From the sequence record DRR378314_2167: a stretch of 42,347 bases of DNA; one strand, written 5' to 3'. Of the stretch, positions 1-40,910 are shown piece after piece. Position 1 is the first letter of the stretch; each line of letters begins with the position of its first letter. The notes below the pieces were generated by a model. That model was not told the origin of the DNA, did not search any database, and saw only the letters and a program-made list of their open reading frames with translations. Both the position numbers and the translations under genes were made by a program.

Positions 1-1
1 C

Positions 2-1502: not shown

Positions 1503-1547
1503 ACAGGCCCGGAATCCATTCAAGTGGTTTCCGGGCCTGTTGCTTTG
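1503..1547 (+). terminator. Probable intrinsic terminator of the ribosomal protein operon
   Basis: Long stem acaggcccggaa...ttccgggcctgt followed by T-rich tgcttt. Confidence 0.6.
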
Positions 1548-1639
1548 TGGTGTATGATTTGTGTTTTCCGTAGCTCTCCCATCGCATCGACAATCCTCGT
1601 AAACTGTCACGGATGTGATGCCCAGACGAAGACGTATCC

Positions 1640-3037: not shown

Positions 3038-4137
3038 TGCCACGGAACACCGTTGCCCGTATTGATACCAGTGCGCTCCGCCATAATTATCGTCTCGCCT
3101 GCAGGTTGGCTCGCCCGGCCCGCGTAATGGCCGTTATCAAGGCCGATGGCTACGGTCATGGAATTCGTGAAGTAGCGCGCGCGCTGGCGAACGACGCACC
3201 CAAGTTTGCCGTTGCCTGCCTGGAAGAAGCGTTGGCGATCCGAGAGGCCGGTGTGACGCATCCTGTAGTGTTGCTGCAGGGGGTGCACAGCGCCGATGAC
3301 GTGGCTGTCTGTGTCCGCGAGGGATTTGAACTGGTGGTTCACAGTGACTACCAACTGGACTGGTTGGAGCAGGCGCCGGAAACGCCACAGATCTGGCTGA
3401 AAGTGAATACCGGCATGAACCGGCTTGGCTTTGCACCGACCACGCTGGGAGATGTTATGGCCCGCGTGGTAGCCAATGGGGCGGTTGATAAGGTCATCGG
3501 TTTCGTCACGCACTTTGCCTGCGCGGACGATGTTTCCAGTGACTTCACGGACCAGCAGACCCGGGTATTCACAGAAGCGGTGGTGGACTGGCCCGCGCTC
3601 GAGAAAAGCGCCGCCAATTCCGCGGCCCATTTTTTTCCCGGTCAGCCGTCGTTTGACTGGAGCCGCCCTGGAATCATGCTCTATGGCGCCTCTCCGACTC
3701 TGGGCAAAATAGGACCGGAGTTGGGTCTGGAAGCGGTGATGACGCTGGAAGCCCCACTCACAGCAGTACGGACCCTGAAACCTGGCGAATCCGTGGGCTA
3801 CGGTTGCTCCTGGACGGCGTCGCAGGAAACCCGGATGGGCATTGTTGCGATAGGCTACGGCGACGGCTATCCGCGGCACGCAGGCACGGATACACCAGCC
3901 TGGGTGGCTGGCAATCGCATACGCCTGATTGGCAGGGTATCCATGGATATGCTGGCGGTGGACCTGACTAACGCCCCGGACGCACACCCTGGTGACTCAG
4001 TGGAGCTGTGGGGCCGGCATGTAAGCGTGGACGAGGTGGCGCAACACGCCGGCACCATAGGCTACGAACTGCTAACGGGTATTACAGCCCGGGTGCCCAG
4101 GCTGTACGAGAGTTCGGATAGCTCCGCTGCGGGGTAG
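3037..4137 (+). CDS. alr: Alanine racemase
   Basis: PLP lysine motif AVIKADGYGHG, IGYGDGYPR, GRVSMD; ATG overlaps the dnaB stop (TGATG). Confidence 0.96.
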   Translation: MPRNTVARIDTSALRHNYRLACRLARPARVMAVIKADGYGHGIREVARALANDAPKFAVACLEEALAIREAGVTHPVVLLQGVHSADDVAVCVREGFELVVHSDYQLDWLEQAPETPQIWLKVNTGMNRLGFAPTTLGDVMARVVANGAVDKVIGFVTHFACADDVSSDFTDQQTRVFTEAVVDWPALEKSAANSAAHFFPGQPSFDWSRPGIMLYGASPTLGKIGPELGLEAVMTLEAPLTAVRTLKPGESVGYGCSWTASQETRMGIVAIGYGDGYPRHAGTDTPAWVAGNRIRLIGRVSMDMLAVDLTNAPDAHPGDSVELWGRHVSVDEVAQHAGTIGYELLTGITARVPRLYESSDSSAAG

Positions 4138-23038: not shown

Positions 23039-23461
23039 ATGCGAACCATGACAGCACCAACGACACCCATGATCTTTGTGAACCTGCCTGTAACAGACCT
23101 CAAGGCCTCAATGGCCTTCTACGACGCACTGGGCTTCAGGAACAATCCCCAGTTTACCGACGACACCGCCGCCTGCATGGTCTGGAGCGAAGCCATCCAC
23201 GTTATGTTGCTCACCCACGACAAGTGGCGCACGTTCACGGATCGCCCCATCCCGCCGTCAACGTCCAGTGAGGTCATGCTGGCCATTTCCTGCAACAACC
23301 GTGAAGCCGTCGATGCGATGAACCAGGCAGCCGCTAACAACGGTGGCACCGCGGATATCAATCCCATTCAGGACCTGGGTTTCATGTACAACAGAAACCT
23401 GGCCGATCCTGACGGGCATGTTTGGGAAGCCATGTGGATGGATATGGCGGCGATTTCCTAG
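23039..23461 (+). CDS. VOC/glyoxalase-family protein (start may be 23048)
   Basis: MIFVNLPVTDL..S..FY.ALGF, DLGFMY, DPDGHVWE. Confidence 0.9.
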   Translation: MRTMTAPTTPMIFVNLPVTDLKASMAFYDALGFRNNPQFTDDTAACMVWSEAIHVMLLTHDKWRTFTDRPIPPSTSSEVMLAISCNNREAVDAMNQAAANNGGTADINPIQDLGFMYNRNLADPDGHVWEAMWMDMAAIS

Positions 23462-23513
23462 CAGGCTAGCGCCGGATACGGCGCATATTCTATGGTTCTG
23501 GCCCCCGAAAACG

Positions 23514-23545
23514 AAAAAAGCCCAACTCTGAGGAGTTGGGCTTTT
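23514..23545. terminator. Intrinsic terminator, probably the original tRNA-Met terminator (bidirectional)
   Basis: aaaagcccaactc-tgag-gagttgggctttt, directly 3' (minus strand) of the displaced tRNA half. Confidence 0.85.
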
Positions 23546-23553
23546 CTGAATGT

Positions 23554-23598
23554 TGGTAGCAAGGGGCGGAGTTGAACCGCCGACCCCGGCATTATGAG
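23554..23598 (-). repeat. att site: displaced 3' half of tRNA-Met
   Basis: Matches 27058-27102 at 44 of 45 positions, from the anticodon loop to CCA. Confidence 0.93.
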
Positions 23599-23744
23599 AC
23601 CTGTGTGAGGCGAACAATCGAAGGCACCGTAATCTTTAAAATTCAGTTGCTTAAGAGCTATCGAGGTGCGATGGCGTACGAAAAGTAAATTGGGATGGCC
23701 AAGGCGCATAAAGTTATTAACGGTGCGTCTGCACCATTACATTA

Positions 23745-23772
23745 TTGACATCTTGGATCCCTCTTCTAGTAT
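23745..23772 (+). promoter_or_regulatory. Sigma70 promoter of the retron operon
   Basis: TTGACA-N16-TAGTAT immediately before the structured leader. Confidence 0.6.
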
Positions 23773-23774
23773 TG

Positions 23775-24030
23775 TTGCGTAAGCTCGCGCGTTCCGCGTG
23801 AATGCTGCAGTTAGACGCAAAATTGCTAAAGCTATGCTTCATCTTGATGAAGCGCTTTGAGAAAAGCACTTCCGGCAGGGGACCCAGTCGCCCCTCCTGC
23901 TACGCAGTAGATGCCGGTGATTGCACATGGCCCGAAACGCAGAGGCTGGTTCTTTAGCAGGTCTAATGAATGCAACTCTGCGTTTTCTCTCCTTAGGTAT
24001 GGAGCGGCCTAGTGCAATATCAATACAAGG
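23775..24030 (+). ncRNA. Putative retron msr-msd ncRNA (boundaries approximate)
   Basis: Dense stem-loops directly upstream of the RT: 23785-23801, 23836-23853, 23854-23867, 23872-23917, long hairpin 23935-23985 inside an outer stem 23918-23932/24006-24022. Confidence 0.72.
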
Positions 24031-24037
24031 ATGTGCA

Positions 24038-25240
24038 GTGATTGACGCAAGGTTCCCCGATTACCCTGAGAAAACCTCTGAAGAGTCAATATCTTCTCTT
24101 CAGTCTCTTTCCGATGTGCTTACTATTCCTTTGGCCGACCTGGAATCTGCTCGTCAACTTTCTCCAGTTCAACGCTACCGATCAAAGGAAATTCCCAAAA
24201 GCGGTGGCTCAGCCAGGTTAGTCTACAATCCCTGCTATCTGATTAGGCTAATTCAATCCCGAATCAATACTCGCATATTTTTGAACCTTGTTCGTTGGCC
24301 AGGCTATCTTTTTGGATCTTTGAAAAATTCAAACATCGATGGCGAAGAGTTTGGTAGGGATTATATTGCTTGTGCGTCTAAACACTGTTTGGCAAAAAGC
24401 CTTTTGAAGATAGATATTTCAAACTTTTTCGATAACATCCATAGAGATCATGTTTATTCAGTGTTTAGAGATTTGCTCAAGATGACCGAGCCAGTATCAG
24501 AATATCTGACCGATATTTGTTGCTATAAAGATTTTCTCGTTCAGGGTGCATTAACATCTAGTTACTTGGCTACCTTGTGCTTTTGGAACTCTGAGGGAGA
24601 TGTCGTCAAAAGATTGTCAAGAAAGGGGTTAACTTATACCCGTTTAGTTGATGATATAACTGTATCCTCAAGAAAGCATGATTTTAATTTCGATTATGCT
24701 GAACATCATATAAAAATGATGCTTATTGATCTTGACTTACCTGTTAACGACAGCAAGACGATGATTCTTCGTGATGGTATTGAGCCACTGCATGTTCACG
24801 GCTTGAGAGTAAATTACTCCACTCCTCGCTTGCCATCGGACGAGGTTCGTAGGATTCGAGCAGCTGTTCATAATGTGATTAAAATGTCCAAGGTTAACAA
24901 CTATCGAACCTCACAATCTTATCGATTAATGCACGATAGGTGTATGGGTCGAGTAAATAAGCTTGCTCGTGTTGGTCATAATAAACATAAAAAATTCGTA
25001 AAGCAGTTAAAAGATGTTATTCCTCTCCCATCTAGAAGGGATGTGAATGAAGTAGAAAAGTCAATTACTACTCTCGAAGGTATAAGTGGCGATAAGCTTA
25101 ATAGCAAGAAGAACACTCGAAAATTTTATTTGGCAAAGTATAGAGTTTCTATTGTTCGAAGGGTTTATAAGAATGAAGCCTTAAGTTTCGAAGCTCGGCT
25201 TTCTAAATTGGTTCCATTTATTGGGAGTTTAAAGTATTGA
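24038..25240 (+). CDS. Retron reverse transcriptase, Ec48-like (type IV)
   Basis: IPK.GG..R, DISNFFDNI, VQGALTSS, YTRLVDDITVSS, region Y VHGLRV; the LVDD/VHG variants match my recollection of Ec48 RT; likely GTG start at 24038 after AAGGA (400 aa). Confidence 0.9.
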   Translation: MIDARFPDYPEKTSEESISSLQSLSDVLTIPLADLESARQLSPVQRYRSKEIPKSGGSARLVYNPCYLIRLIQSRINTRIFLNLVRWPGYLFGSLKNSNIDGEEFGRDYIACASKHCLAKSLLKIDISNFFDNIHRDHVYSVFRDLLKMTEPVSEYLTDICCYKDFLVQGALTSSYLATLCFWNSEGDVVKRLSRKGLTYTRLVDDITVSSRKHDFNFDYAEHHIKMMLIDLDLPVNDSKTMILRDGIEPLHVHGLRVNYSTPRLPSDEVRRIRAAVHNVIKMSKVNNYRTSQSYRLMHDRCMGRVNKLARVGHNKHKKFVKQLKDVIPLPSRRDVNEVEKSITTLEGISGDKLNSKKNTRKFYLAKYRVSIVRRVYKNEALSFEARLSKLVPFIGSLKY

Positions 25241-25926
25241 AGTTTTTTGTGTGGGTTATTGTTTTTATTTTTATTGCCACTTTATTGGCTGGTGCCGCAT
25301 CCTTTTTTTATACTATTTTTGGCCTGGATGATGGCTATGATGATTTTTGTATCGCTTCTTCATGTATAGTTTCCTTCGAGCGTTTATTCTCTGGAACTCT
25401 CAAAATATTTGAGTTCGGTGCTTCTCTTGCTTATATTTTTGTTTTTACTAGCGGTGTTTATATTGCGCTAAAAAGCTATAGGGTTAGCGTTAAATCATCT
25501 GCGTTATCAGGCCACATTGGCCATCTTGCAATGTTTAAGGAATATATGGAGGGAGAAATCGAAAAGCTCGGATTGTTGAAGATGGAGAGGGTTAATGTCT
25601 ATCACTGGTACAGCTTGGCATTTCCGAAATCTGCTGAAGGGGATATTAACGTTTCTGAAAAATACCGAGATACCGTTTCATCTATTGCCAAAGCTATAGC
25701 TGAAACCAATGATTCGATTTCCTCGCCGAAAGGTGGCTATGGCTACCGAAAGCATCAGGATAGAATGATAGAAGCTTTAGGTCGTTTGGGTATTCAGATT
25801 CCTTATCTTCCAAAGAATGAGTTTATTGAAGTAGAATCTCAAGTTTTTAAGCTTATTGATTCTTTCAATCATACTTTCACTGACATTAGCCTGTTTTTGC
25901 TTGAATGCCAGAGAGATTACGTTTGA
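25237..25926 (+). CDS. Retron Ec48-family two-TM effector membrane protein
   Basis: Two N-terminal TMs with a CxxxxC loop, HLAMFKEY, WYSLAFPKS; TTG start overlaps the RT stop (TTGA). Confidence 0.82.
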   Translation: MKFFVWVIVFIFIATLLAGAASFFYTIFGLDDGYDDFCIASSCIVSFERLFSGTLKIFEFGASLAYIFVFTSGVYIALKSYRVSVKSSALSGHIGHLAMFKEYMEGEIEKLGLLKMERVNVYHWYSLAFPKSAEGDINVSEKYRDTVSSIAKAIAETNDSISSPKGGYGYRKHQDRMIEALGRLGIQIPYLPKNEFIEVESQVFKLIDSFNHTFTDISLFLLECQRDYV

Positions 25927-25992
25927 TATTTTATTTGCCTTACTTTGGGCGTATCTAGGTATTTAGAATTCTGCAGTGTGATTCAAGAGTTT

Positions 25993-26211
25993 TTACATCC
26001 AAGGAATTCTTTGGTTTGGCCCATAAATTGAGTTGTCATCTATGTAGTACTGGGTATAACCTGCACCTCTTTCGTAAATTGCTCCATCGTCTAAGAAAAA
26101 GCCTGTGAATCCTTCCCCTCTTCCATAAATGTATCCATCATCAATCCAGTAACCGGTGTATCCATTTGGGCCATATATGTGGTTATCAGATATATAATGC
26201 CTAGTATACAT
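25993..26211 (-). CDS. Small four-repeat Tyr/Gly/Asp-rich protein (beta-flower-like?)
   Basis: GGGGAG RBS 8 nt before ATG; four 16-17-aa repeats [YWF][IL]xD[GN]xIYxxxxG[YF]T. Confidence 0.75.
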   Translation of the reverse strand: MYTRHYISDNHIYGPNGYTGYWIDDGYIYGRGEGFTGFFLDDGAIYERGAGYTQYYIDDNSIYGPNQRIPWM

Positions 26212-26285
26212 AGAGAAGTCTCCCCAATTGATTGTTGATCATTTGTGAAAGCCCCGTTACTGGATTACCTATGGGGTTCGTTTGG

Positions 26286-26460
26286 CCACTACATGATGAA
26301 CGGGGGAGACATCCTCACGCTTCAGCGCATCCTCGGACATGGGAACATCACCATGACCATGAAGTATGCGCACCTCTCGCCGGATCACTTGCAGTCCGCT
26401 GTGAGGTTATCACCTGTCTCATCTATGGTCAGTGAGGCATCTGAAAAGGCCTCCACGTGA
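26286..26460 (+). pseudogene. 3' remnant of a phage tyrosine integrase
   Basis: HYMMNGGDILTLQRILGH..ITMTMKYAHLSPDHL retains LGH and the catalytic Tyr; the upstream HxxR and Arg motifs are absent. Confidence 0.88.
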
Positions 26461-26479
26461 TTCGGTGCTGGGCGGAATA

Positions 26480-26926
26480 TCAGAGTGCTACTCTAGATAG
26501 AGGCATTGCGATTCCAAGGTAATCCGCAAGCCAGTAGAAAAAGAAGATAATTAACGCGACAGTGAACGTAGTGGTTGCTCGCCAGAAAAGGGCTCTTTTG
26601 GCTTGGTCGTTTTCTATCTTTTTTAGTTGTTCGTGCTCGTCCAGGTAAATTTTGTTCCTTGCTTCGTAAACAGACATCGCGCTCTTTAGCTCGTGATAAG
26701 TGCTGTTTGCGTTACTGTTGAGAACTCCGCTCCTGACTCTAGTTAGTAGCGAGTCTCTATCTCCCTCTGCCATTCGGTATTCTTGGTGCGCAGTGACAAC
26801 AATGTCTTTTATGAGCTTCTCAAAGTCTTCAGAAGTCACCTTTGGTGTCGGGGTGCCGCTCCGAAACTTCTTGTACTTTATGCTTTCGCAGATCTTGGTG
26901 AAAACCGTTTTACTATCTTCAGCCAT
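26480..26926 (-). CDS. Hypothetical protein, helical with a C-terminal TM (148 aa)
   Basis: GAGGTG RBS before ATG 26926; hydrophobic FTVALIIFFFYWLADYLGIAM. Confidence 0.7.
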   Translation of the reverse strand: MAEDSKTVFTKICESIKYKKFRSGTPTPKVTSEDFEKLIKDIVVTAHQEYRMAEGDRDSLLTRVRSGVLNSNANSTYHELKSAMSVYEARNKIYLDEHEQLKKIENDQAKRALFWRATTTFTVALIIFFFYWLADYLGIAMPLSRVAL

Positions 26927-27018
26927 CGATACACCTCGCAAGCTCGCTATTTCCTTGAGGGCATCATAGCGACTATGGATGGGCAGGGCCAGAATGGTCA
27001 AGCGGGGGACAAACCAAC

Positions 27019-27051
27019 AAAAAAGGGCTACAGCGTGAACTGTAACCCTTT
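27019..27051 (-). terminator. Island-supplied terminator for tRNA-Met
   Basis: Minus strand gggttacag-ttcacg-ctgtagccc followed by T6, just after CCA. Confidence 0.8.
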
Positions 27052-27057
27052 GAATTC

Positions 27058-27134
27058 TGGTAGCAAGGGGCGGAGTCGAACCGCCGACCCCGGCATTATG
27101 AGTGCCGTGCTCTAACCAACTGAGCTACCTTGCC
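27058..27134 (-). tRNA. tRNA-Met (CAT), elongator type
   Basis: 77-nt cloverleaf GGCAAGG...CTCATAA...TTCGACT...CCTTGCTACCA; lacks the initiator C1:A72 mismatch and GGG/CCC anticodon stem; Ile2 not fully excluded. Confidence 0.93.
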
Positions 27135-27161
27135 ATTACTTCACTGATGGAAGCGGCGCGT

Positions 27162-27190
27162 ATCTTATTGTCGGGGGTGTGGGCTGTCAA
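27162..27190 (-). promoter_or_regulatory. Sigma70 stable-RNA promoter of tRNA-Met
   Basis: TTGACA-N17-TAAGAT followed by GC-rich discriminator ACGCGCCGC. Confidence 0.85.
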
Positions 27191-27348
27191 GAGCCTGTCC
27201 AGTGCCGCGATTCCTTTTTTGCCTGTCTTTGGTGTTTCTCGCCTGAAAACACTCTTATAAACAATGGCCTAAACGAGTCATCTGTGAAGAGTGGGTTTTC
27301 GATTCTTTCCGTAATTGTTGCCAGTTGTTCATTTGCAGGCCTTGAATC

Positions 27349-27391
27349 GCAAATGTGAATAATGGTTAAATGCAAATGATTGTCATTTATC
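27349..27391. promoter_or_regulatory. Fur box array
   Basis: GCAAATGATTGTCATTTATC (27372-27391) plus a weaker upstream GCAAATGTGAATAAT. Confidence 0.8.
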
Positions 27392-27413
27392 AATTACCCA
27401 GGGACGGCTTGCC

Positions 27414-28007
27414 ATGAGTTCTTTCAGGCACGAATTAGATCAACAGGCTCGCAACCTGTCCAACCTAAGATCCGTAGACGTTACCGGAGTGTCGAATTGT
27501 GAGCGGCGCCTTGCTGCGGCCTACCAGCAGCATCGAAAGCCCCTGGTGGACACCGCTCAATGCCTGCTGGGTTGCAGGGCCCGGGCAGAGGATGTGGTTC
27601 AGGATGCGTTCCTGAAAGTCTGGGATCAGGGCTTTACCGATAACGTCAGGGATGAGGGGCGCTTCCTGCATCGGGTGGTGCGCAACCTTGCCATTGATCG
27701 TCTTCGCCGGCTGGCGCTGGAAAACCGCTTCGCGGCCACCGATGCCGATGTGGAGCAGGAGCCCGGGGTCCTCTCGGCTTCGCCAGAGCGCCAGTTGGCC
27801 GGCTCCCGGGCGCTGCACCATGCGCTGTCCTCACTCGCGGAGCTGCCCGGCCGGGTGCAGAAGGTATTGCTGCTTACCCGGCTGGAGGGCCGCACACAGC
27901 GGGAGGTGGCGCGTTCTCTCGGGGTGTCTCCCACGCTGATCAACTTCATGCTGAAAGACGCCCTGGCGCACTGCCGCGGCAGCCTGGACCAATCCTATCC
28001 TGTTTAA
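27414..28007 (+). CDS. Iron-starvation ECF sigma factor (PvdS/OrbS/FecI-like)
   Basis: AEDVVQDAFL, VRNLAIDRLRR, region 4 QREVARSLGVSPTLINFMLKDA; Fur box upstream. Confidence 0.85.
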   Translation: MSSFRHELDQQARNLSNLRSVDVTGVSNCERRLAAAYQQHRKPLVDTAQCLLGCRARAEDVVQDAFLKVWDQGFTDNVRDEGRFLHRVVRNLAIDRLRRLALENRFAATDADVEQEPGVLSASPERQLAGSRALHHALSSLAELPGRVQKVLLLTRLEGRTQREVARSLGVSPTLINFMLKDALAHCRGSLDQSYPV

Positions 28008-28047
28008 TCCGAGCCTTTATTAATTCGAGAATTGGGGACCGTTGTTC

Positions 28048-29733
28048 ATGAGACTGATCCGTCTGGTATTTAGCCACAACCCGGGTGCGCTGACCGTTGC
28101 TCTTCTGCTGAGCGTTGTGAGTGCCCTCCTGAGTGTCGGGGTGGTGGCGTTTATCAATGAGCGCCTGGTATCCGCAACAGAGGGTGGGGCAGGTCTGCTC
28201 TGGCAGTTTACCGGCCTGTTGGTTGTTCTGCTGGTCATCGCTTCCTACGCCCAGGTGTTGCTGACAGCGCTGGGCCACCGGTTCGTTTATGGGTTGCGGC
28301 GCTCGATGGTCAAGCGGGTTCTGGATACGGGGATTGAGCGCCTGGAGGACATCGGGGGCGCCAATATCCTGGCCAGCCTGTCCAGCGATATCCGCAATAT
28401 CACCCTGGCATTCGTCAACCTGCCGCAACTGGTTTACGGCCTGGGCCTGAGCGTGGCGGCGTTTGCGTACCTGGCGTACCTGTCGCTGCCGCTGTTTGCC
28501 ATGACGCTGCTGTGGATGGTGTTTACCGTTGGCGTGGGGTGGGTGCTGATCCGGGCCCTGAGCCATCACCTGCAGCAACTTCGGGAGTCCGAGGATCGCA
28601 TCTATCAGGACTATGAAGCGGCCATTGAAGGGCGCAAGGAGCTGGCCCTCAACCGAGACCGTGCGCGGCGCTATTACGACGACGAGTTTGACCGCAGCGC
28701 CGAGACCTACCGCAGCCACGTCACGCTGGCGGACCGCTACCACAGCATCGCCAGCAACTGGGCCAATATCATGGTGCTTGGCACCATTGGCCTGGTGTTT
28801 TATCTGGTCAATGGCCTGGGCTGGGCGGCGGCCTCCGTGGCGCCCACCTATGCCCTGACCATTCTTTTCATGCGCACCCCGCTGGTCTCTGCCGTCGCGG
28901 CATTGCCCGCCATGCTGTCGGCCCGGGTATCGCTCGACAAGCTCGACACCCTGGCGCTGGCGGAGCACCGGCCCGGATTCGAGGACGCGAGCCGTGACCC
29001 CACGGGCGAGTGGCAGGCATTGCAGTTGAGTGCGGTGCGGTATCGCTATCCGGTTCAGCACGGCGAGCCAGGGTTCGATGTGGGGCCGATCGACCTGACA
29101 ATCCGCCGTGGTGAGACCCTTTTCCTAGTGGGTGGTAATGGCAGTGGCAAGTCCACATTGGCCCGCCTGCTGTCTGGTCTCTACCTGCCCCACCAGGGCG
29201 AGATCCGAATCGATGGCGAGCCCTTGCAGCCTGAAGACTGGAGCAGCTATCGCCGCCTGTTTGGTTCCGTGTTCACCGACTTTTTCCTGTTTGACCAGCT
29301 CATTGCCGAGCAGGGCCAGAACGCCGACCCGGCGAACGTGAGTTACTGGCTGGAGCGCCTTCGCATGGCAGACAAGGCGAAGGTGGCCGACAGCCGCCTG
29401 CAGGATACCCGTCTGTCCCAGGGGCAGCGAAAGCGGTTGGCGCTGTTGCTGGCGCTGCTGGAGAAGCGGGACATACTGCTGCTGGATGAATGGGCGGCGG
29501 ACCAGGACCCGGTTTTCCGCCGGCTGTTCTACCGGGACTTGTTACCGCAATTGAAAGCGCAGGGCAAAACCATCTTCGCCATTACCCACGATGACCGTTA
29601 TTTCCACCACGCGGACCGCCTGTTGAAGATGGACAGTGGCCAGTTGGTCGAGTTGTCGGCGGAAGACCGCCAGGCGTCTCGTCATGACGCCCTTCAGATG
29701 ATCGGAGAGGGCGCTTTTTCCGATCAGGCCTAA
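28048..29733 (+). CDS. Cyclic peptide/siderophore export ABC transporter (PvdE/SyrD/YojI family)
   Basis: TMD plus NBD; GGNGSGKST, LSQGQRKRLAL, family motif DEWAADQDP. Confidence 0.92.
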   Translation: MRLIRLVFSHNPGALTVALLLSVVSALLSVGVVAFINERLVSATEGGAGLLWQFTGLLVVLLVIASYAQVLLTALGHRFVYGLRRSMVKRVLDTGIERLEDIGGANILASLSSDIRNITLAFVNLPQLVYGLGLSVAAFAYLAYLSLPLFAMTLLWMVFTVGVGWVLIRALSHHLQQLRESEDRIYQDYEAAIEGRKELALNRDRARRYYDDEFDRSAETYRSHVTLADRYHSIASNWANIMVLGTIGLVFYLVNGLGWAAASVAPTYALTILFMRTPLVSAVAALPAMLSARVSLDKLDTLALAEHRPGFEDASRDPTGEWQALQLSAVRYRYPVQHGEPGFDVGPIDLTIRRGETLFLVGGNGSGKSTLARLLSGLYLPHQGEIRIDGEPLQPEDWSSYRRLFGSVFTDFFLFDQLIAEQGQNADPANVSYWLERLRMADKAKVADSRLQDTRLSQGQRKRLALLLALLEKRDILLLDEWAADQDPVFRRLFYRDLLPQLKAQGKTIFAITHDDRYFHHADRLLKMDSGQLVELSAEDRQASRHDALQMIGEGAFSDQA

Positions 29734-29755
29734 ACATCGGGCAGTCTCGCTCGTC
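29731..29755 (+). promoter_or_regulatory. Candidate PvdS/OrbS-type ECF promoter
   Basis: TAAA-N17-CGTC. Confidence 0.55.
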
Positions 29756-29760
29756 TGTAT

Positions 29761-29779
29761 GTAAATGAGAATTATTTGC
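29761..29779. promoter_or_regulatory. Fur box
   Basis: GTAAATGAGAATTATTTGC upstream of the ornithine oxygenase. Confidence 0.7.
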
Positions 29780-29847
29780 TTTGTTCGCCGGGCGACGCCG
29801 GGCCTTCGTGCAATCTTTTCGCAATCCATTATTACGGGAGAACGGTG

Positions 29848-31161
29848 ATGAGCCACATACATGATTTTATTGGCGTCGGTTTTGGCCCGTCGAATCTGGC
29901 GTTGGCAATTGCAGCGCAGGAGTACGCTGAGAATGGAGGGGCGCCCGATGCCTGCTTCCTGGAGCGCAAGCCGGCATTCAACTGGCATGAGGGCATGTTG
30001 ATTGACGGCTCCACCATGCAGATTTCCTTTCTCAAGGATCTGGCCACCCTGCGCAATCCGCAAAGCCGCTTTACCTTCATCAACTATCTGAAGGAGCAGG
30101 GACGGCTGGAGGATTTCATCAATATCCAGACGTTCTTTCCCGCCCGGGAGGAATATAACGATTACCTGCAGTGGGCTGCCGGCCATTTTGATGACCAGGT
30201 GCATTACGGTCGCGAGGTTGAGGGCGTTGAACCATTCCTGAAAGACGGCCGGCTGATCGGGTTTGACGTGCTCTCCCGAACCGCCGAGGGCGAGCTTGAA
30301 AGCCGCAGGGCCCGTAACCTGGTGCTGGGCATGGGCGGTGCGCCGCAGGTGCCGGCGGCGTTTGAAGGGATAACCGACCCGCGCGTTGTGCACTCGTCGC
30401 AATACCGTGGCCGCATTGAAACGCTGCTCGCCGATAAGGGGAGCAAGGCGCGGGTTGCCGTGGTCGGAGGTGGCCAGAGTGCGGCGGAGATCTTCGAGGA
30501 TCTTACCCAGCGATTCCCCCAGGTGGACGCGTCGATGATCCTGCGCGGAACCGCCCTGAAGCCCTCGGACGACAGCCCGTTCGTCAACGAAATCTTCAAT
30601 CCGTCGTTTATCGACCAGATCTATCAGCAACCCGAGGCCCGCCGCCTGCAGTTGCTGGATGAGTTCCGCAACACCAACTACGCGGTGGTCGACCTGGAGT
30701 TGATCGAGCGCATTTTCCAGATGTTCTACCTCCAGAAACTGCGAGGCGAGGACCGGCACCAGATGCTGGCCCGTCGTGACATCAGCCGGGTAGAAGCCGG
30801 TGAGGGCGGTTTGCACCTGACCCTGCGGGACCTGGCCACCGACAGCCAGCAGGCGCTGGGCTTCGATGCCGTCATCCTGGCTACCGGTTACCGCCGTAAC
30901 CAGCACCACGAGCTGCTGGCGGGCCTGGGGGATCACCTTGAGAGCCTGACACCCGATCGCCACTACTGCCTCAACCTGCGTGACAGCGACGCGCGGATAT
31001 ACCTGCAGGGTTGCTGCGAGACCACGCACGGCCTGAGCGACACGCTGCTGTCGGTGCTCGCCGTTCGTTCACGAGAAGTGCTTGAGTCGATCCTGGAAGG
31101 TCGGGACAGCGGGCGTCCCGCCGTTGCGGATCGCAAAGCCCAGGCCACCTCAATGGTGTGA
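29848..31161 (+). CDS. pvdA: L-ornithine N5-monooxygenase (PvdA/SidA/IucD family)
   Basis: GVGFGPSNL, WHEGML, MQISFLKDL, GGGQSAAE, NTNYAVVD, LATGY, HGLSDTLLS; GGGAG RBS. Confidence 0.92.
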   Translation: MSHIHDFIGVGFGPSNLALAIAAQEYAENGGAPDACFLERKPAFNWHEGMLIDGSTMQISFLKDLATLRNPQSRFTFINYLKEQGRLEDFINIQTFFPAREEYNDYLQWAAGHFDDQVHYGREVEGVEPFLKDGRLIGFDVLSRTAEGELESRRARNLVLGMGGAPQVPAAFEGITDPRVVHSSQYRGRIETLLADKGSKARVAVVGGGQSAAEIFEDLTQRFPQVDASMILRGTALKPSDDSPFVNEIFNPSFIDQIYQQPEARRLQLLDEFRNTNYAVVDLELIERIFQMFYLQKLRGEDRHQMLARRDISRVEAGEGGLHLTLRDLATDSQQALGFDAVILATGYRRNQHHELLAGLGDHLESLTPDRHYCLNLRDSDARIYLQGCCETTHGLSDTLLSVLAVRSREVLESILEGRDSGRPAVADRKAQATSMV

Positions 31162-31232
31162 TGGCCCAGGGAAGAAAACCGCGGGGAGCAACGCCCCGCG
31201 GCGATGTGTTCTGAAATCATGCAGGTGCCAAG

Positions 31233-34200
31233 ATGAGCCTACACGCGGAACGGTTTCCGAATTTCGCCGATGTCCTTCGTTTTTACGCAGAGCAGCAACC
31301 CGAGTCCCTGGCCATCCGGCAGTTGGTCTCGGACGACGCGCCACCCCTGGTAACCAGTTACGGTGAACTCTACCAGCGCGCACAGGCGTTGGCGGGGTAT
31401 CTCCAGAACGAGCTGGGACTTGCACCGGGTGAACGCTGCATGCTGATGCTGCCCGGGGGCGCGGATTTTGCGGCGGCCTTCTTCGGTTGTTTCTACGCCG
31501 GGATTATCGCGATACCCGCCTACCCGCCGGAGCACGACCGCCAGGCCTATATTGATCGCCTCGGCGGAATTCTCCGGGATGGTAAGCCAATGGCCGTCCT
31601 TGCCCTGGAGCAGGACATCCGGCGTTACCAGTCGCGATTGGCGCCGCTGTTGCCCGAGGGTGGGCGTGTGGTGGCTGTGGATCGTATCGGGCTGCACTGG
31701 CAGGACGCGCTACAGGTGGTGCCACCCCAGAGCGAGGACCTGGCGTTTCTGCAGTACACCTCCGGCTCAACCTCCGCGCCCAAGGGGGTCATGGTCTCCC
31801 ATGCCAACCTGATGGCCAACGAGTACACCATGGCCGCAGCCTTCCAGGCGACAGAAAATGATGTGTGGATGACCTGGCTGCCGCTGTTTCATGACATGGG
31901 GTTGATGTCGGGGCTGCTGCTGCCAATCCTGCATGGCCACTGCGCCAACATGATGACACCGCAATTCTTCCTGGCCCGCCCGGCACGCTGGCTGGAGGCG
32001 ATGAGCGAATATCGGGTGACCTGCTCCGGTGGCCCGGATTTCGCCTACATGCTCTGTGCCTGGCGGGTGACCGATGAACAACTGGCAGGCCTGGACCTGT
32101 CCAGCTGGCGCCTGGCGTTCACCGGGTCGGAACCCATTCGTCCGGACACCCTGGAGCGCTTTGCCGACCGCATGGCGCCCTACGGTTTCCGTAGGGACAT
32201 TTTCGCACCCAGCTATGGTCTGGCCGAAGCCACCCTGTTTGTGACCTCCCACGGGTTCAACGGTGATTTCCAGACCCGAACCTTTGAGCCGGAACAGCTC
32301 TCCACCGCCGGCCTCAGCAGCGCCCATCAGCCCAGCAGACTGGTGGGTTGCGGCGGCAAATTTGGTGAGGACGACGTTCGCATCGTGGATCCCCAGACGT
32401 GGGAGCCCGTCGAGGACGGCCGCGTGGGCGAAATCTGGATTTCCGGCCCAAGCGTCGCCCAGGGCTATTGGGAAAAGCCCACGGCCACGGCGGAGACCTT
32501 TGTGCAGTGGCAGGACGGCCGTTGGCTGCGCAGTGGCGATCTCGGCATTGTCGAGGGCGGCCACCTTTATGTGGCCGGGCGCCAGAAGGATGTGATTATC
32601 GTCAATGGCCAGAACCTGTATCCCCAGGATATCGAGAGCACCCTGGAGCGGGAGATAGAACTCCTGATGCCCGGCCGGCTCGCCGCCTTTGCCACCACGG
32701 ACGCCCGGCAGGCGGAAGGTATAGGGCTGGCCCTGGAAGTGGGCCGGACTACCCGCAGAATGATCAAGCCGGCCATGATCTGCGCCACCATCGCGGAAAC
32801 CATGAGCGACACCCTAGGCATTGCGCCCCAGGTGATCTTGCTGCTGGAGCCCAAAACCCTGCCGCGCACCACCAGCGGCAAGCTGCAACGTGCGGCCTGT
32901 CGCGAGGGCTGGGAGCGCGGCGAGCTGTCCGTGTTTGCCGGCTGGCAGGACGGTCGCATGCTGGAGGAGGGCGCCTCGGCCCCGGCTGAAACATCGGCTG
33001 AAGTAGGGCTGACACTGCTCCCGGAAGTCGTGGCCGCCTGGCAGGCGGCGCTTGAGCGCGACGATCTGGACAGCAACGCCCACTTCTTCACCTGGGGCGG
33101 CGATTCGGTCGGCGCCATGCAGATGCTGTCCCGAGTGGAACGTGACCTTGGGTTGACCATTGAGCCGGCCATTCTGTTCGAGCATCCCCGCCTCGGCGAC
33201 TTTTCCCGCTGGGTGTCGAAGCAGCGTGCCAATGGCCAGGGAGTCGACCCAATCACACGTCTTCCGGACGACGCGGAACCCCTGCAATCCTTTGCCCAGC
33301 AGCGGCTCTGGTTCCTGGACCAACTGGAAGGCGGCTCCAGCGCCTATCACTTGTGCGGCGAATGGCAGTTCACGGGCAGCCTTGATGAAGACGCGCTCCA
33401 GCGCAGTTTGAATGCCCTGGCAGAGCGTCATGAAAGCCTGCGCACGGTGTTTGCCGAAACGGATGACAACCGTGGCCTGCAACGGATACAGCCGGCGGCA
33501 CCGGTGACCATCCATCGTCATGACCTTGGCGGCGAGGATTCTCCCGCAAGCGCGCTGGATAACCTCAGCCGAGCCCTGGTCAGCCAGCCCACGAATCTCG
33601 AGCAGGGTCCGTTATGGCAGGTGCACCGGATTGACCTTGGCGAAAGCAACCATCGCCTGTTGCTGGTGATTCATCACATTATCGCCGACGGCTGGTCAGC
33701 GCAGGTGCTGGTGAAAGAATTCGCTCAGCTCTACACCGCCTTTGCGCAAGGACAGGATCCGGCGCTACCGGAGCTGCCCATCCGCTATTCCGACTACGCC
33801 CAATGGCACCGGGAGACCATGGAGGCCGGTGAAGCCGAACGCCAGTTGAGCTGGTGGAAGCAGCAGTTGGGTGATGAGCAACCGGTGCTGGAGCTCCCTG
33901 CCGACCGGCCGCGCCCCGAGTCCCAGAGCCATCATGGTGCCAGGGTGGCCTTTGCCTTCCCGGAATCGGTCAGTGAGAAGCTTCGGCAGTTGGCCAGGGA
34001 TCAGGGCGTGACGCTCTTCATGGTCATGCTGGCGCTCTATAAAACCCAGCTGTATCGCTATTCCGGCCAGCGGGACCTACGGGTAGGGGTGCCTGTGTCC
34101 GGTCGGTCGCGGCCGGAAACCGAAGGTCTTGTCGGCCTGTTCGTCAACACCCTGGTGCTGCGCAGTCAGCCCGGAGCGACGCAGGGCTTCACTGATTTCC

Positions 34201-37200
34201 TGGCCTCGGTCCGTGATACCACCCTTGGGGCACAGGCCCATGCAGATCTGCCGTTTGAGCAATTGGTGGATGCACTGCAGCCGGAGCGTAACCTGCGCCA
34301 CAACCCCCTGTGCCAGGTGAAGTTCACCCAGCAGTTCCTGTTGCCCGAGAATGTCGGGCTGCCCGGGGCGACGCTCACCATGCGCCAGCGGGACGACGAC
34401 AGCGCGCATTTTGATCTGGGTTTTGATATCACCGATCAGCACCGGGGTATAGAGGGCGTACTTACCTACGCCTGCGACCTGTTCGACGAGCCGCGTATTC
34501 GTGGGCTTGCCGAGGAACTGGTCAACCTGGCCGAACAGGTCACCGCGAATCCCTCGCGGCCGCTGGGCGAGCTGGCGCTGTTGGCGACACCATCGGCGCT
34601 GGAGGGACCGAAAGCGGACTTCCCGGCACGGGATCTGATGTCGCTCTGGAATGGGCATATCCAGTCCAGCACCGGGCAACAGGCACTGCAGTACGAGGGC
34701 CAGGCGTTCGACTACGGCTGGCTGGAGGCCAAATCCAACCGGCTGGCGCATCACCTGCAAAGGCAGGGCGTGGCAGCGAATTCGCCGGTCGGGCTTTGCC
34801 TCGATCGCTCGCCGGAATTCGTGGTCGGCGTTCTGGCAGTGCTCAAGGCCGGCGGGGCCTTCGTGCCCCTGGACCCGAAATGGCCGGCTGATCGTCAGGC
34901 GTTTGTGCTGAAGGATTGCGGCGCCGGATGGTTGTTGGGTCATGAAACGTTGCCCGGCTTCGAAGGCGCCTTGATCGGCTTCTCCGCAGGGGCTGATTGG
35001 AAGAGCGAATCCGCCGAATCGCTGGACACCGTGATTGAGCCTGCGCAGGCCGCCTACCTGATCTACACCTCCGGCACCAGCGGCACCCCCAAAGGCGTGG
35101 TGGTCAGTCACGGCGCCATTGCGAACTATGTACAGGGTCTGTTGCAGACCATCGAACCCTCGGCGAAGGCCACCATGGCAATGGTTTCGACCGTTGCGGC
35201 GGACCTGGGCCATACCACGTTATTTGGCGCCCTGTGCAGTGGTCGTACGCTGCACCTGTTGAGTGCCGACCGGGTCATGGACGCGGACGCTTTCGCCAGC
35301 TACATGGCTGAGCATCAGGTCGACACCCTGAAGATCGTGCCCACCCACCTTTCCGGTGTGTTGCAGGCCGCCGACCCGGCCCGGGTATTGCCCCGTGAGG
35401 CCCTGATACTGGGCGGTGAAGCGCTGCCTGCGGCATTGCTGCGTCAGGTGCGCGAACTGAACCCCGGCTGCCGTGTGTTCAACCACTACGGGCCGTCCGA
35501 GTCCACCGTGGGTGTGCTGACGACGGAACCGGGCGATGAGCAGGATGCGATCGTGCCGTTGGGCACGCCGCTGCCGAACATTCGCGCGCAGGTGCTGAGC
35601 GACGAGCGTTTGCCTCTGCCCCAGGGAGCCATTGGCGAACTCTACCTTGGCGGTGCCGGCCTTGCGCGGGGATACCTTGGCCAGGCGGAGCAGACGGCCG
35701 CGGTCTTTGTGGAGGATCCCCGGTCTCCGGGCAAAAGGCTTTATGCCACGGGTGACCGGGCACAGTTATTGGCGGATGGACGCCTGACCTTCCACGGCCG
35801 CAACGACGACCAGGTGAAGGTCCGCGGCTACCGGGTCTCACTGGGTGAGATCGCACAGCGCACCCGTGCGTTCGACGGCGTCAGCGATGCCCATGTGCAG
35901 GTCGACGACAATGGCCAGATTGTGGCGTATCCGCTAGCGACTGAGCTGGATACGGACGCCCTGGGTGAAACATTGGCAAGACAGTTGCCGGACTACATGG
36001 TGCCGGCGCATATCCTGCCGCTGGCTGAATTTCCGCTGACCCCGAATGGCAAGCTCGACCGCAAGGCGTTACCGCAACCGGAGCGTAAGGGTGAGGATTT
36101 CGCGGCGCCGCTGGCGGGTGTGGAAACCATACTCGCGGAACTCTGGCAGTCGCTGCTGCACCTTGAAAAGGTCGGCCGCCACGACAACTTCTTCAGCCTG
36201 GGCGGCGATTCCATCATCAGCCTCCAGGTGATTGCCCGCGCCCGCAAGCAGGGCGTGAAGCTCACCCCCAAGCAGTTGTTCGAGAAGCAGACCATCGCTG
36301 AACTGGCCCAGGTGGCTGAGGTTCAGGAGGCCGCTGCCGAGCCGAAACCGGCAGCCAGGGAGGAAGTGCCCCAGGCCTTCCCGCTGACACCGATCCAGCA
36401 ACGCTTCTTCAATCAGCCCGTTGATGATCGCAATCAATGGAGCCAGGCGCTGCGCCTGCGTATCCGCTCACCGCTCAAGGCGGAGCCCCTGCGCAAGGCC
36501 CTGGCCGCCGTGGTCGATGCCCACCCCGCCTTGCGGTTGCGTTTCGATGCCGACCCGCGCACGCAGACTTACAGCCGCGAGGAAAAGGCCGATCTGCTCT
36601 GGACCCTGGAAACCGACGATGAACAGGCCCTGCTTTCGACCTTCAACGACGCGCAGCGCAGTCTCGACCTGTCGAACGGGCCGCTGCTGCGCGGTGTGTT
36701 GGTCTCGCGGCAAGACGGCCGGCAGGAGCTGCTGATCACCGCCCATCACCTGGCGGTGGACGGTGTCTCCTGGCGGGTGCTGCTGGAGGATCTGCAGCTT
36801 GCCTATGAGCAGGCCGCGGGCGGCAGGGCCATCGAGCTGGAAGGGGAGATCGACGGCTTGCATGACTGGGCGCGTTACCTGCATCGGGATCTTGCCAATG
36901 GCCGCCTGGACGGAGAACTCGCCTATTGGCAAGGGTTCTCCGCCGAGGAGGCGACCCTGCCTTGCGACAACCCAGATGGCACAGCCCGGGTTGCCGACGG
37001 CGATCACGTGCGAATGACGCTCGATGAAGCGCAGACCCAACGGCTGCTCAACAACGCGCCGACCGCCTTCCGCACCCGGATCAACGACCTGCTGCTGGCG
37101 GCATTGGCCCAGGCGCTGGGCCAATGGTCCGGCCGCAGCCGCCATGTGATCAACCTGGAAGGTCATGGCCGCAATGGCCCTGACGGGGCGCCGGACGTGA

Positions 37201-40200
37201 GCCGCACGGTGGGCTGGTTCACAACGCTGTATCCGGTGGCGCTGGAAGCCAGCGACGATGCGCTCGACACACTCAAACGCACGAAGGAAATGCTGCGTCA
37301 GGTGCGGGGCGACGGGTTGGGCTATGGTGTGCTTAAGGAGCTGCAGGGCGCGGAACTGCCGGAATTGACCGGCGCCGGCCTGACATTCAACTACCTCGGC
37401 CGTTTCGACGGCGACGCGAGCTCGCAATTTGCCCTTGAAGACAAGCCCGTCGGCGATACGCGCCACGGCTCCGGCCCCCTGGCGAACGCGCTGGTGGTGG
37501 ACGGCCAGATCCGCAATGGCCAGTTGCAGCTGGACTGGACCTACAGCCGTGCGAGGTTCGACAAGTCGCGGGTGACCCGTCTGATCGACCTGTACCGCGA
37601 AGCATTAGTGACGCTGATTGAAGCCTGTGAGGCGCGGACGGGCGGCCTGACACCGTCGGACGTGCCGCTGGCCGACATGGACCAGCCGCAACTGGATGCC
37701 CTGGAAAACCCTGCGAATATCGAGGATATCCTGCCCCTGGCGCCGATGCAGGAAGGCATCCTGCTGCACAGTCTGCTGGAGCGGGGCAGCGGCATCTACC
37801 TGATGCAGGACCAGTATGAGGTGCGTAGCGAGGTGGATTTCGAGGCCTTCAAGGCGGCCTGGCACGCGGTGGTCCAGCGCCATCCCATGCTCCGGACCGC
37901 CTTCCACGGCCTGGACGGTGGCACCCAGCACCAGATTGTCTATCGCGACGTACCGTCGCCGTCGCAGTTGATCGACCTGAGTCACCTCGACCGGGCCGAT
38001 GCCGAGGCGGAACTGGACGAACTATTGGCCGACGAACGCCGCCAAGGCTTCGATTTCACCAAACCTCCGCTGCTGCGTCTTCGCCTGGTGCGCTTCGGCC
38101 CGGGCGAGTACCGCATTGTGCAAAGCCACCACCACGCGTTGATCGACGCCTGGTGCCGCGGCCTGATGCTGGCGGAGTTCTTCGATCATTACCGCGCATT
38201 GGTGGAGGGTCGGCAGCCGGTGGTGACCCCGGCGCGCCCCTACCGTGACTTTATCGCCTGGCTGCAACGCCAGGATGCCGAACAGGCATTCCGTTTCTGG
38301 CGCAATAACCTGGGCGGCTTTACCGACGTCACGCCACTGCCGTACCAGCGAACGGCGTCAGGGCGCGCGTCCATCCGGGATGTGTCCCTTTCGCTCTCTG
38401 CCGGGGAGACGGCACAGCTGGCCGAACGGGCGCGCGGTGAGAAGCTGACGGTGAATACCTTCATGCAGGCCGCCTGGGCGCTGGTGCTGATGCGTCACGG
38501 TGGTCTGGACGAAGCCCTGTTCGGGGTGACCGTTGCCGGTCGCCCGGCGGAGCTGGATGGCATAGAGGAAACCCTTGGCCTGTTCATCAACACGCTGCCG
38601 CTGCGTATTGGTGCTGAAAGCGCGACCCAGACCGGGCTCGACTTCCTGCATTCATTGCAGTCCGCCAACGCCGCCATACGCCAGCACGAACACCTGTCCC
38701 TGGCGGAGGTGCAGAACCTGGCGGATACCCCGCGCGGCGACGCCCTGTTCGACAGCCTGTTTGTGTTCGAGAACGTGCCCATGGGGGCGGACGTGCAGCA
38801 GGCTGCCGAAGCCTACGGCATCACACCCCTGGCCAACCGCACCCACACCAACTACCCGCTGACCGTGGTCATCCTGCCGGGCGAGACCTACCAACTGCAG
38901 TTCAGCTACGACCAGCGGGTTTTCCGTGACCGGGATATGCAGGCGTTGCTGGACCAGTACCACCAGGTTCTGCGCCAGTTGATGCAGGCACCGGAGCAGC
39001 CGCTTGCCGCTATCCAGCTGGTTTCGGCCGGGGAACGGGGCGAACTGCTCGGGCTCGGCCAGGGCCAGGTGGAACCGGACTGGATGAGCCTGAGCTGGCT
39101 CGAACGGTTCGAGGCCTGGGCGCTGGCGGATCCCGGCCGGGAAGTGGCCCGCTGCCAGGGCGACGGCATGAGCTACGCCGAGCTTAACCAACGGGCCAAC
39201 CGCATCGGTCATGGCCTGATTGAGGCAGGCGTGAAGCCGGATCAGGTGGTGGCGCTGTACTCGCCCCGCAACCTGGACCTGCTGACCATGATCGTGGGCG
39301 CCTTCAAGGCCGGCGGCGCCTACCTGGCACTGGATGAGCGCCATCCGCCGGCCCGCAGTGGCCGCATGTTGCACAGCAGCCACGCGCCCGTGCTGGTCAC
39401 GCCGGAGGCCTGCCTGGAGCAGGTCGATGCCATTCTGGCGGACACCGAAGCGCGCCCACGGCTGATCACCCTGGAGTCCCTGTTGGCCACGGCTCGGGAT
39501 GGTAACCCGCGCCGCTATCCAGCGATGGATCAACTGGCCTACGTTATCTACACCTCCGGCTCCACCGGTGAGCCCAAGGGCGTGATGGTTAACCAGCGGG
39601 GCATGCTCAACAACCAGTTGTCCAAGGTGCCCTATCTGGAACTGGGTGAGGGCGATGTGATCGCCCAGACGGCGGCCACCGGCTTCGACATCTCCGTGTG
39701 GCAGTTTCTGACCGCGCCGCTGTTTGGCGGCCGCCTGGACATCATTCCCGATGAGATCACCCACGATCCCCAGCGGCTGCTCGAGGCCGTGGCCGACAGC
39801 GGCGTTACCGTGCTGGAAAGCGTGCCTGCGGTAATCGACGGCATTCTTGCGGTGCCGGAGCAGCGACTGGGATTGCGCTGGCTGCTGCCCACCGGCGAGG
39901 CCCTCGGCCGGGAACTGGCCCAGCGCTGGTTCGAGCGTTACCCGCGCATTCCACTGGTCAACGCCTATGGGCCGGCGGAGTGCGCCGACGACGTGGCGCT
40001 CCACACCCTGGCAGGCCTGGAGGATACCCGCGCCGGCATTCCCATCGGCAAACCCACCGACAACAACCGGCTTTACGTGCTCGACAGTCAGTTGGAGCTG
40101 GCACCGAGCGGCGTGGTTGGCGAGTTGTACGTGGGCGGCACCGGTGTCGGCCGTGGTTATGCCGGCCGTCCGGAGCTGACTGCGGAACGCTTCGTCCCGG

Positions 40201-40910
40201 ACCCCTTCGGCGAACCCGGCGACCGCCTGTACCGCACCGGTGACCTGGCGCGCTGGAACGATGACGGCGTGCTCGAGTACGCCGGCCGTGCCGACTTTCA
40301 GGTGAAGATCCGCGGCCAGCGCATCGAACCGGGCGAGATCGAATCCTGCCTGCTGGCCTGCAACGGCATTCGCCAGGCGGTGGTGGCGGCCCAGCAAACA
40401 CCCCACGGTGCCCAACTGGTGGCCTACCTGGTGCCTGACGATGGCCTCCACCTGGAAACCGAAAGCCTGCGGGACCGACTGTCCCACGAACTGCCGGCGG
40501 TGATGGTGCCCACCCATCTGGTGGTGCTTGACCGCCTGCCGCTGAACGCCAACGGCAAGCTGGACCGCAAGGCCCTGCCGCAGCCGGAGCTTGAGGTACG
40601 CCGCTACATCGCCCCGGACGGCGAACTGGAACAAACCCTGGCGCAACTCTGGAAAGACCTGCTGCAGGTCGAGCAGGTGGGTCGCCACGACCACTTCTTT
40701 GAGCTGGGCGGCCACTCCTTGCTGGCCACCCGCCTGCTGTCACGGATCCGCGAGCGCCTGGGCGTAAGCGTGCCGCTGGCTGAAGCCTTTGAAGCCACCA
40801 CGGTGGCGGCCATGGCGGCCGTGATCGAGCGACTGCAGGGCCAGACCCTGGACCAGGACCGCCTGGATAATCTTGATGCATTGATGAGTGAACTGGAGGA
40901 GATTGAATAA
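31233..40910 (+). CDS. Siderophore NRPS: FAAL-ACP-C-A(Asp)-PCP-E-C-A(Dab)-PCP
   Basis: FAAL ([23 protein letters not shown]), GGDS, HHIIADG, A1, GGDSI, E ([22 protein letters not shown]), [10 protein letters not shown]2, GGHSL. Confidence 0.95.

Follow-up and report, generated by a model that had tools for sequence, protein, structure and literature searches.

The DNA analyzed here (the window) is a 42,347-nucleotide (nt) stretch of sequence record DRR378314_2167, and the feature under study occupies positions 23745–25926 of its plus strand. Read 5′ to 3′, this region contains a promoter-like site, a structured leader, a gene for a reverse transcriptase (RT) with LVDD and VHG motifs, and a gene for a two-transmembrane (2TM) protein whose start overlaps the RT stop. 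An original prediction, made from the letters of the window, had described these five parts, and all of them are present at those positions. Both proteins belong to families of type IV retrons, the catalytic motifs are intact, the genes keep the order and overlap just described, and the leader has a covarying fold in common with a type IV locus of Escherichia coli (L057). Judged from its sequence, the locus is very probably a complete type IV retron of the Retron-Eco6/Ec48 family, in which one promoter would serve a structured RNA of ~259 nt, an RT of 400 amino acids, and a translationally coupled 2TM effector. Type IV retrons are common, and standard defense-finder profiles would call the present one; as a locus, it adds one more case of a known type of system and little else. 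Only the architecture of its leader exceeds routine annotation, and this concerns type IV as a whole.

The RT gene (24038–25240, plus strand) lies in a reading frame that is open over 23921–25240. The most likely start, judged from sequence comparison, is GTG 24038, which is preferred to the alternative ATG 23999 because the closest homologs start there; the frame upstream of this position is closed by stops in the related loci L001 and L004 (introduced below). Against PADLOC, the RT matched RT_IV with an E value of 1.3e-168 and 559 bits, residues 49–431 aligning with profile positions 2–384 of 386. In a sequence search of the PDB, nine matches were obtained at E ≤ 0.001, all of them retron or retron-family RTs (eight of the nine are so named), and the RT of Ec86 was the best (~1e-16). 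The alignment with Ec86 places YTRLVDDITVSS opposite YTRYADDLTLSA, VHGLRV opposite VTGLVI, and IDISNFFDNI opposite IDLEDFFPSL; LVDD and VHG therefore occupy the positions of YADD and VTG, and the motif-A aspartate is retained. The RT motifs specific to retrons are the NAXXH region and VTG. Neither literal string is found in the window RT; the motifs are present as the variants DNIH, VHG, and LVDD, which vary little or not at all across 32 type IV RTs. Within this set, VHG and YTRLVDD (aligned with YTRYADD of Ec86) are invariant, and the window RT keeps all 56 invariant columns of the 32-sequence alignment.

Other identities for the RT were examined by profile searches, namely a group II intron, a DRT/UG or Abi RT, or a type V or type VI retron. 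Features that could be read in this direction are the Pfam result, which was the generic RVT_1 only (8.3e-20); the scores against NCBIfam retron RT models, all below their cutoffs (St85, 115 bits with a cutoff of 235; Ec67, 90 bits with a cutoff of 450); and LVDD in place of YADD. The searches nevertheless favored RT_IV and 2TM_IV, leaving this identity extremely improbable. RT_IV is ahead of all other PADLOC RT models by more than 330 bits, the next being RT_V (4.4e-68, 228 bits) and RT_VI (182 bits), and the NCBIfam models for group II introns, Drt2, and Drt3a reached E values of merely 1e-7 to 2e-5. LVDD and VHG are characteristic of the family, in which they do not vary, and the partner is a 2TM protein of the Ec48 family, not a cold-shock, helix-turn-helix (HTH), or small protein.

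This partner, a protein of 229 amino acids, is encoded at 25237–25926 (plus strand). Its TTG start codon at 25237 overlaps the TGA stop of the RT (25238–25240) in the 4-nt sequence TTGA. The protein matched 2TM_IV in PADLOC (4.3e-72, profile positions 7–234 of 235) and, in NCBIfam, the equivalog model NF038235, "retron Ec48 family effector membrane protein" (221.9 bits against a cutoff of 65). PADLOC had been named in the original prediction as a check, and it returned type IV models for both proteins. Hydrophobic stretches cover residues 1–30 and 60–78. An alignment of 45 effector sequences contains nine invariant columns, all kept in the window protein (C38, C43, F100, Y125, G135, Y143, H173, E200, and Y228), and the two invariant cysteines sit between the helices. 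The AlphaFold2 model is all-helical with a pLDDT of 92. Compared with the PDB as a whole model, without a separate search of the C-terminal domain, it gave no Foldseek match at E ≤ 0.001 and, by VIA-align, generic helical-hairpin matches only (Z ≤ 7.7, residues 1–91). A Pfam family, PF28197, is listed among precomputed annotations for effector homologs P0121–P0128; the Pfam copy searched gave no family for the window effector and probably predates PF28197.

The pairing of the two genes is a property of the family. At the protein level, 681 RT homologs were found at E ≤ 0.001, and the best match overall is a metagenome protein with 78% identity. A scan of one genome per species yielded 56 related loci, and in 51 of them a 2TM homolog directly follows the RT. 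Three of the remaining five (L028, L031, and L053) stop at a contig edge, and two (L055 and L056) encode distant RTs from Terriglobia with 30–34% identity. When the start codon nearest the RT stop is taken, a choice that favors overlap, 38 of the 51 loci show an overlap between effector start and RT end. The three closest loci are those of Marinobacter zhanjiangensis (L004), M. salexigens (L001), and a metagenome-assembled genome of Marinobacterium (L002), whose RTs are 74%, 68%, and 64% identical to that of the window. Their effectors, compared by tblastn, are 60%, 57%, and 46% identical, the last over residues 34–229 only, and all three loci have the same 4-nt overlap (NTGA) of effector and RT. 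The assignment of the window locus to Ec48-like type IV retrons, as first proposed, is thus borne out by family profiles matched at full length by both proteins, by the RT–2TM order in these 51 loci, and by leader helices common to the E. coli locus.

Upstream of the leader lies a sigma-70-like promoter site, TTGACA-16-TAGTAT (23745–23772, plus strand), recognized by consensus match at 10 of 12 positions. Taken alone the match is weak, because the 4-kb region holds 11 comparable sites and its shuffled versions hold 7.5 ± 2.6. In the alignment of related loci, −35-like (TTG..) and −10-like (TA..) boxes recur upstream of the conserved RNA with constant spacing. We infer the 5′ end of the RNA from the −10 box, which places the msr–msd leader, the retron noncoding RNA (ncRNA), at approximately 23779–24037 on the plus strand. 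The segment 23760–24040 folds with a z score of −3.15, and none of 200 shuffled sequences folds as well. From 23781 to the RT start the leader is near-identical to those of L004, L001, and L002, with compensatory changes in one helix (D, below); mean column identity among the four is 80%, which is above expectation from the 64–74% identity of the RT proteins. An Rfam search of 23300–27400 at E ≤ 1 gave no match to the leader, a tRNA alone reaching its gathering score.

Leaders from 46 type IV loci were aligned, and all column pairs were scanned for covariation. Over the 51 pairs proposed, standard base pairs fill 93.0% of 2314 cells, compared with 72.0% in shuffled alignments and 33–43% when partners are slid. 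Both sides change in 47 of the 51 pairs, and the covariation score is 0.676 versus 0.266, a level that was reached in 0 of 500 shuffles. In an alignment-free check that tried every 3′ strand against each 5′ strand, cognate duplexes had energies of −12.0 to −19.6 kcal/mol and noncognate duplexes −5.3 to −9.8 kcal/mol; depending on the helix, the cognate strand was the single best of 46 partners in 19 to 33 cases. The window leader itself forms 44 of the 51 pairs.

The elements follow one another along the plus strand in the order P1, A5′, B5′, P2, P3, M, C5′, D5′, B3′, A3′, D3′, P4, C3′, and ribosome-binding site. Hairpin P1 (CGCGCG/CGCGUG; 23786–91 with 23795–800) has an invariant loop-closing G-C pair, is 97% paired, and changes on both sides in four of six pairs. 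A long helix in three parts follows, made up of A-outer (23802–05 with 23972–75) and A-inner (23810–16 with 23961–67), which were found by covariation, and B (23823–30 with 23953–60), which is out of register in the alignment and was found by cofolding its strands. All 10 pairs tested in helix A change on both sides, and when the two strands are folded together, the three-part helix is predicted in 46 of 46 leaders. Enclosed by it are the adjoining hairpins P2 (23836–40 with 23849–53) and P3 (23854–58 with 23863–67), jointly 94% paired with changes on both sides in 9 of 10 pairs, and M (23871–23917), a variable, branched region with G-rich and C-rich stretches whose pairing was read by eye. 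Within M, GUAG (23907–23910) is conserved, G23910 being invariant and A23909 nearly so (alignment columns G135 and A134). Covariation further defines helix C (23921–32 with 24006–18, extended by eye to 24024), helix D (23936–44 with 23976–84), and hairpin P4 (23989–24004; 23989–92 with 24001–04). Every one of the 21 pairs of C and D changes on both sides, and 13 nt separate the end of C3′ from the RT start. Helix A also contains an internal loop (23806–23810 and 23967–23971) in which (U/C)GCA(G/A) stands opposite UGAA(U/G), with C23808, A23809, and A23970 nearly invariant; it looks like a motif for protein or tertiary contact rather than a spacer.

Helix A+B is presumed to be the natural a1/a2 stem. 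Covariation, cofolding, and the difference between cognate and noncognate duplex energies point to its 5′ strand (23802–23830) as the a1-like element and to its 3′ strand (23953–23975) as the a2-like element. P2 and P3 would then be stem-loops of msr, together with M, and the msd template would presumably span ~23905–23952, a length of 46–48 nt that includes the 5′ strands of C and D. The distance from the first G of GUAG to the base before B3′ (23952) is 46 nt, both in the window and in L057. The multicopy single-stranded DNA (msDNA) of Ec48 is reported as 48 nt, or three fewer by sequencing, in Palka et al. 2022; the 46-nt spacing fits this length and is suggestive of a similar product. Other arrangements were considered and set aside. 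An a1/a2 pairing of 23770–75 with 24025–30, seen in the minimum free energy fold, would take in part of the −10 box, and neither L001 nor L004 conserves it. Three permuted layouts, with msd in region M, the D loop, or the 5′ hairpin P1, would each either yield too short a product or require the priming G to lie where the sequence is not conserved.

For msDNA production, toxicity, trigger, and protection, expectations at this locus come from homology. The RT would bind the leader and prime from the 2′-OH of a guanosine next to A+B, the long a1/a2-like helix, copying the template of ~46–48 nt (~23905–23952), which RNase H would remove; the product would be a short msDNA joined to msr RNA (P2, P3, and M). 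The RT–msDNA particle would keep the membrane effector silent while monitoring a host function, and a phage inhibitor of that function would release the effector, leading to membrane damage and aborted infection. Ec48 is reported to guard RecBCD, with λ Gam and T7 gp5.9 as triggers and abortive infection through a membrane effector (Millman et al., 10.1101/2020.06.21.156273), and Gam is reported to trigger types IV and V (10.1101/2025.10.22.683967). The outline of Ec48 in the original prediction (RecBCD guard, membrane effector, abortive infection) agrees with what these two sources report.

Several points weigh against the reading of the locus as an Ec48-like type IV retron with this layout and mode of action. 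Retrons generally carry a conserved, unpaired guanosine on each strand where the a1/a2 stem ends, namely the priming G and the first template G (reported in 10.1101/2020.06.21.156273). Unlike these textbook retrons, the 46 leaders show no conserved unpaired G beside the inner end of helix B, where the last paired base of the 5′ strand is G in 18 sequences, C in 10, A in 9, and U in 9; the nearly invariant guanosines G23836, G23944, and G23945 lie 4–7 nt from this end. The priming G and the exact template can therefore not be placed. Nor does the presumed template fold on itself in the manner of the usual msd hairpin; its partners, in helices C and D, lie downstream of a2. A nested fold of the C/D type is also more stable than one of the A/B type, on average by 12.1 kcal/mol (standard deviation 6.1; 46 sequences), and the RT-competent fold is therefore not the predicted ground state. 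The slid-partner control is flattering, because the helices to which it was applied had been chosen by scanning that very alignment for covariation. As to mode of action, the RT and effector are only 49.7% and 35.9% identical to those of L057, so the trigger may differ from that of Ec48; we give the same trigger about even odds. The Eco6 accessory protein is reported not to be toxic when expressed alone (Palka et al. 2022), and a simple toxin–antitoxin picture may therefore not hold for type IV. The start codon of the window effector, TTG, is a rare one. Among sequencing runs, 12 were listed as matching the locus, all with a share of 0.11 or less, and no RNA run was among those listed.

The relation between the two sets of helices bears on how the leader works. 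A+B crosses C+D; both covary, and they cannot nest. A3′ is continued directly by D3′, and the linker from D5′ to B3′ is only 7–8 nt, from which we judge, by geometric reasoning and not by computation, that D cannot form alongside the full A+B. The leader is then either remodeled by the RT or a switch that has these two folds as its states. A retron of the same type whose leader is also a switch is a possibility that we entertain tentatively. The template (the 5′ strands of C and D) would pair just upstream of the RT start, and msDNA synthesis, or msDNA acting in trans on newly made transcripts, would remodel the RNA and thereby alter translation of the RT and effector. In keeping with this, the two covarying sets are mutually exclusive in full by the geometry above, the C/D fold is favored by ~12 kcal/mol on average, and the 3′ end of helix C is close to the RT start. 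There is also a precedent in type VI, which belongs to the same RT clade 3 and is reported to couple msDNA to effector translation through a large structured RNA (10.1101/2025.10.22.683967). Against a switch, the alignment is unconserved past helix C and revealed no pairing that would mask the ribosome-binding site of the RT, and C and D could simply be an architecture recognized by the RT or a folding intermediate. Retron-Eco6, which is of type IV, is moreover reported to make msDNA constitutively, unlike type VI (10.1101/2025.10.22.683967; Palka et al. 2022). If true, the switch would be a feedback that sets the levels of the RT and the coupled membrane effector, related to the msDNA-controlled translation of type VI. 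C and D may already be drawn in the published type IV consensus (Mestre et al. 2020); among the papers listed by a search on retron pseudoknots, none deals with natural type IV leaders, judging by title and abstract. With or without regulation of this kind, the locus is read as a type IV retron, and the crossing, covarying helices from 46 loci bear on priming, termination, and perhaps self-regulation in type IV, as well as on the engineering of short msDNA.

The retron cassette sits in a 3.5-kb islet of low GC content bounded by a 59-nt direct repeat, the copies of which are 90% identical. The right copy (27051–27109) contains the 3′ half of a tRNA-Met (CAU) gene at 27058–27134 (Rfam tRNA, 70 bits), together forming the right islet edge (27051–27134, minus strand); the left copy (23547–23605, minus strand) is a decayed 3′ half of tRNA-Met plus 7 nt and forms the left edge. 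GC content is 0.35–0.40 over 24200–26200 and 0.45–0.51 up to 27400, compared with 0.56–0.67 in the flanks. Between the effector and the tRNA lie three further features. The first, at 25993–26211 (minus strand), is an open reading frame (ORF) of 72 amino acids with no family in Pfam, PADLOC, or NCBIfam and, across the 56 related loci, nothing comparable beyond a 26-residue match in L045 (E = 0.29). This cargo ORF has about four repeats rich in Y, G, and D, of a pattern like Y-I-x-D-x-x-I-Y-G-x-x-G-Y-T-G, and occupies the expected place of the N-terminal part of an integrase. The second, at 26245–26460 (plus strand), is a C-terminal stub of a tyrosine recombinase of ~70 amino acids, which matches PF00589 at 1e-5 (25.8 bits, cutoff 27.1; profile positions 138–170 of 172) and, far below cutoffs, Xer and integron integrase models of NCBIfam. 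The upstream frames hold stops and no N-terminal recombinase part; as this stub is all that remains, the islet has lost its integrase. The third, at 26480–27001 (minus strand) beside the tRNA, is an ORF of 173 amino acids with a hydrophobic helix near the C terminus (~residues 137–168). It has no family of note in Pfam, PADLOC, or NCBIfam and no counterpart in the 56 loci; it may encode another small membrane protein carried by the islet as cargo.

The cassette was acquired by horizontal transfer and is now on an islet at tRNA-Met, so that it exemplifies a retron cassette fixed there after loss of the integrase. The surroundings are not a defense island: on one side the flank contains an Opp-like ABC transporter and a glyoxalase, and on the other an extracytoplasmic function (ECF) sigma factor, an ABC exporter, and a nonribosomal peptide synthetase (NRPS) of 3225 amino acids. 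The latter genes (27414–40910) form a siderophore-type, pyoverdine-like cluster directly beside the islet, the exporter having a C-terminal ATPase and the synthetase three modules (three each of condensation, AMP-binding, and PP-binding domains). An uninterrupted site was not found in a search of 151 genomes, of which 31 had any match; glyoxalase homologs of 81–87% identity were among these matches, and a tRNA was nearby in none of eight loci examined. The 2.6-kb flank of the window is at most 73% identical to the genomes of L001, L002, L004, L007, and L031 over the top-scoring piece of ~340 bases, higher identities being confined to short pieces. L004, L001, and L002 have no tRNA within 2.5 kb of the retron, unlike the window, and their insertion sites therefore differ from it. 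A tRNA or tmRNA gene was present within this distance in 4 of 29 scanned loci (L003, L027, L046, and L039; tRNA-Leu, tRNA-Arg twice, and tmRNA), from which it follows that type IV cassettes ride several different tRNA-targeting islands.

The state of the islet raises the question of whether the retron, brought in on it, is now a silent relic that is unexpressed or gives no protection. The integrase is reduced to its ~70-residue stub, the two genes start with GTG and TTG, and their GC content at third codon positions (GC3) is 0.34–0.35, far below the 0.62–0.83 of neighboring host genes, so that codon usage is poorly adapted. A relic is nonetheless unlikely, given that both ORFs are full length on their profiles with every invariant residue retained, 44 of 51 RNA pairs persist, and a promoter-like site is in place. 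The original prediction called the homolog functional, a word that derives from intactness alone and is unsupported. Its suggestion of a marine host was also unsupported, although the nearest relatives of the RT are in Marinobacter, Marinobacterium, and Microbulbifer. As a divergent and intact relative of Ec48 outside enterobacteria and P2 prophages, the type IV retron of the window is usable to ask whether the guarding of RecBCD is general to type IV.

Among known systems, the closest in plan is Ec48 (Retron-Eco6), reportedly the E. coli type IV retron of Mao et al. 1997. It has the same order of promoter, ncRNA, RT, and overlapping 2TM effector as the window. The E. coli type IV locus L057 (NZ_CP159209), which may or may not be the published Ec48 allele, has the same leader helices and 46-nt spacing; its retron is flanked by a divergent second gene annotated "RNA-directed DNA polymerase" and by a phage portal gene (L057 positions 1–4108). 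The window differs from Ec48 in its setting, a tRNA-Met islet with a decayed integrase instead of a P2-like prophage, in a host of ~60–65% GC with pyoverdine-like NRPS neighbors, and in its GTG and TTG starts. Types V (Retron-Sen1) and VI (Retron-Vpa2) are the other members of RT clade 3, and their RT profiles ranked second and third (228 and 182 bits). Where the window has a 2TM protein, type V has a cold-shock-like partner and type VI a small protein with an HTH protein. Type VI has a large structured RNA, is reported to make little msDNA until triggered, and uses msDNA to derepress effector translation (10.1101/2025.10.22.683967). More distant is Retron-Eco1 (Ec86), the RT core of which aligns over residues 46–300 (E ~1e-16) with the catalytic aspartates in register. 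Ec86 has YADD and VTG where the window has LVDD and VHG, and the window RT has ~100 extra C-terminal residues. The effectors also differ, that of Ec86 being reported as nucleoside deoxyribosyltransferase (NDT)-like (Palka et al. 2022) and that of the window having two transmembrane segments. Finally, the Ec86 ncRNA follows the textbook arrangement of a1, G, msr, msd hairpin, and a2, to which the leader of the window conforms only in part.

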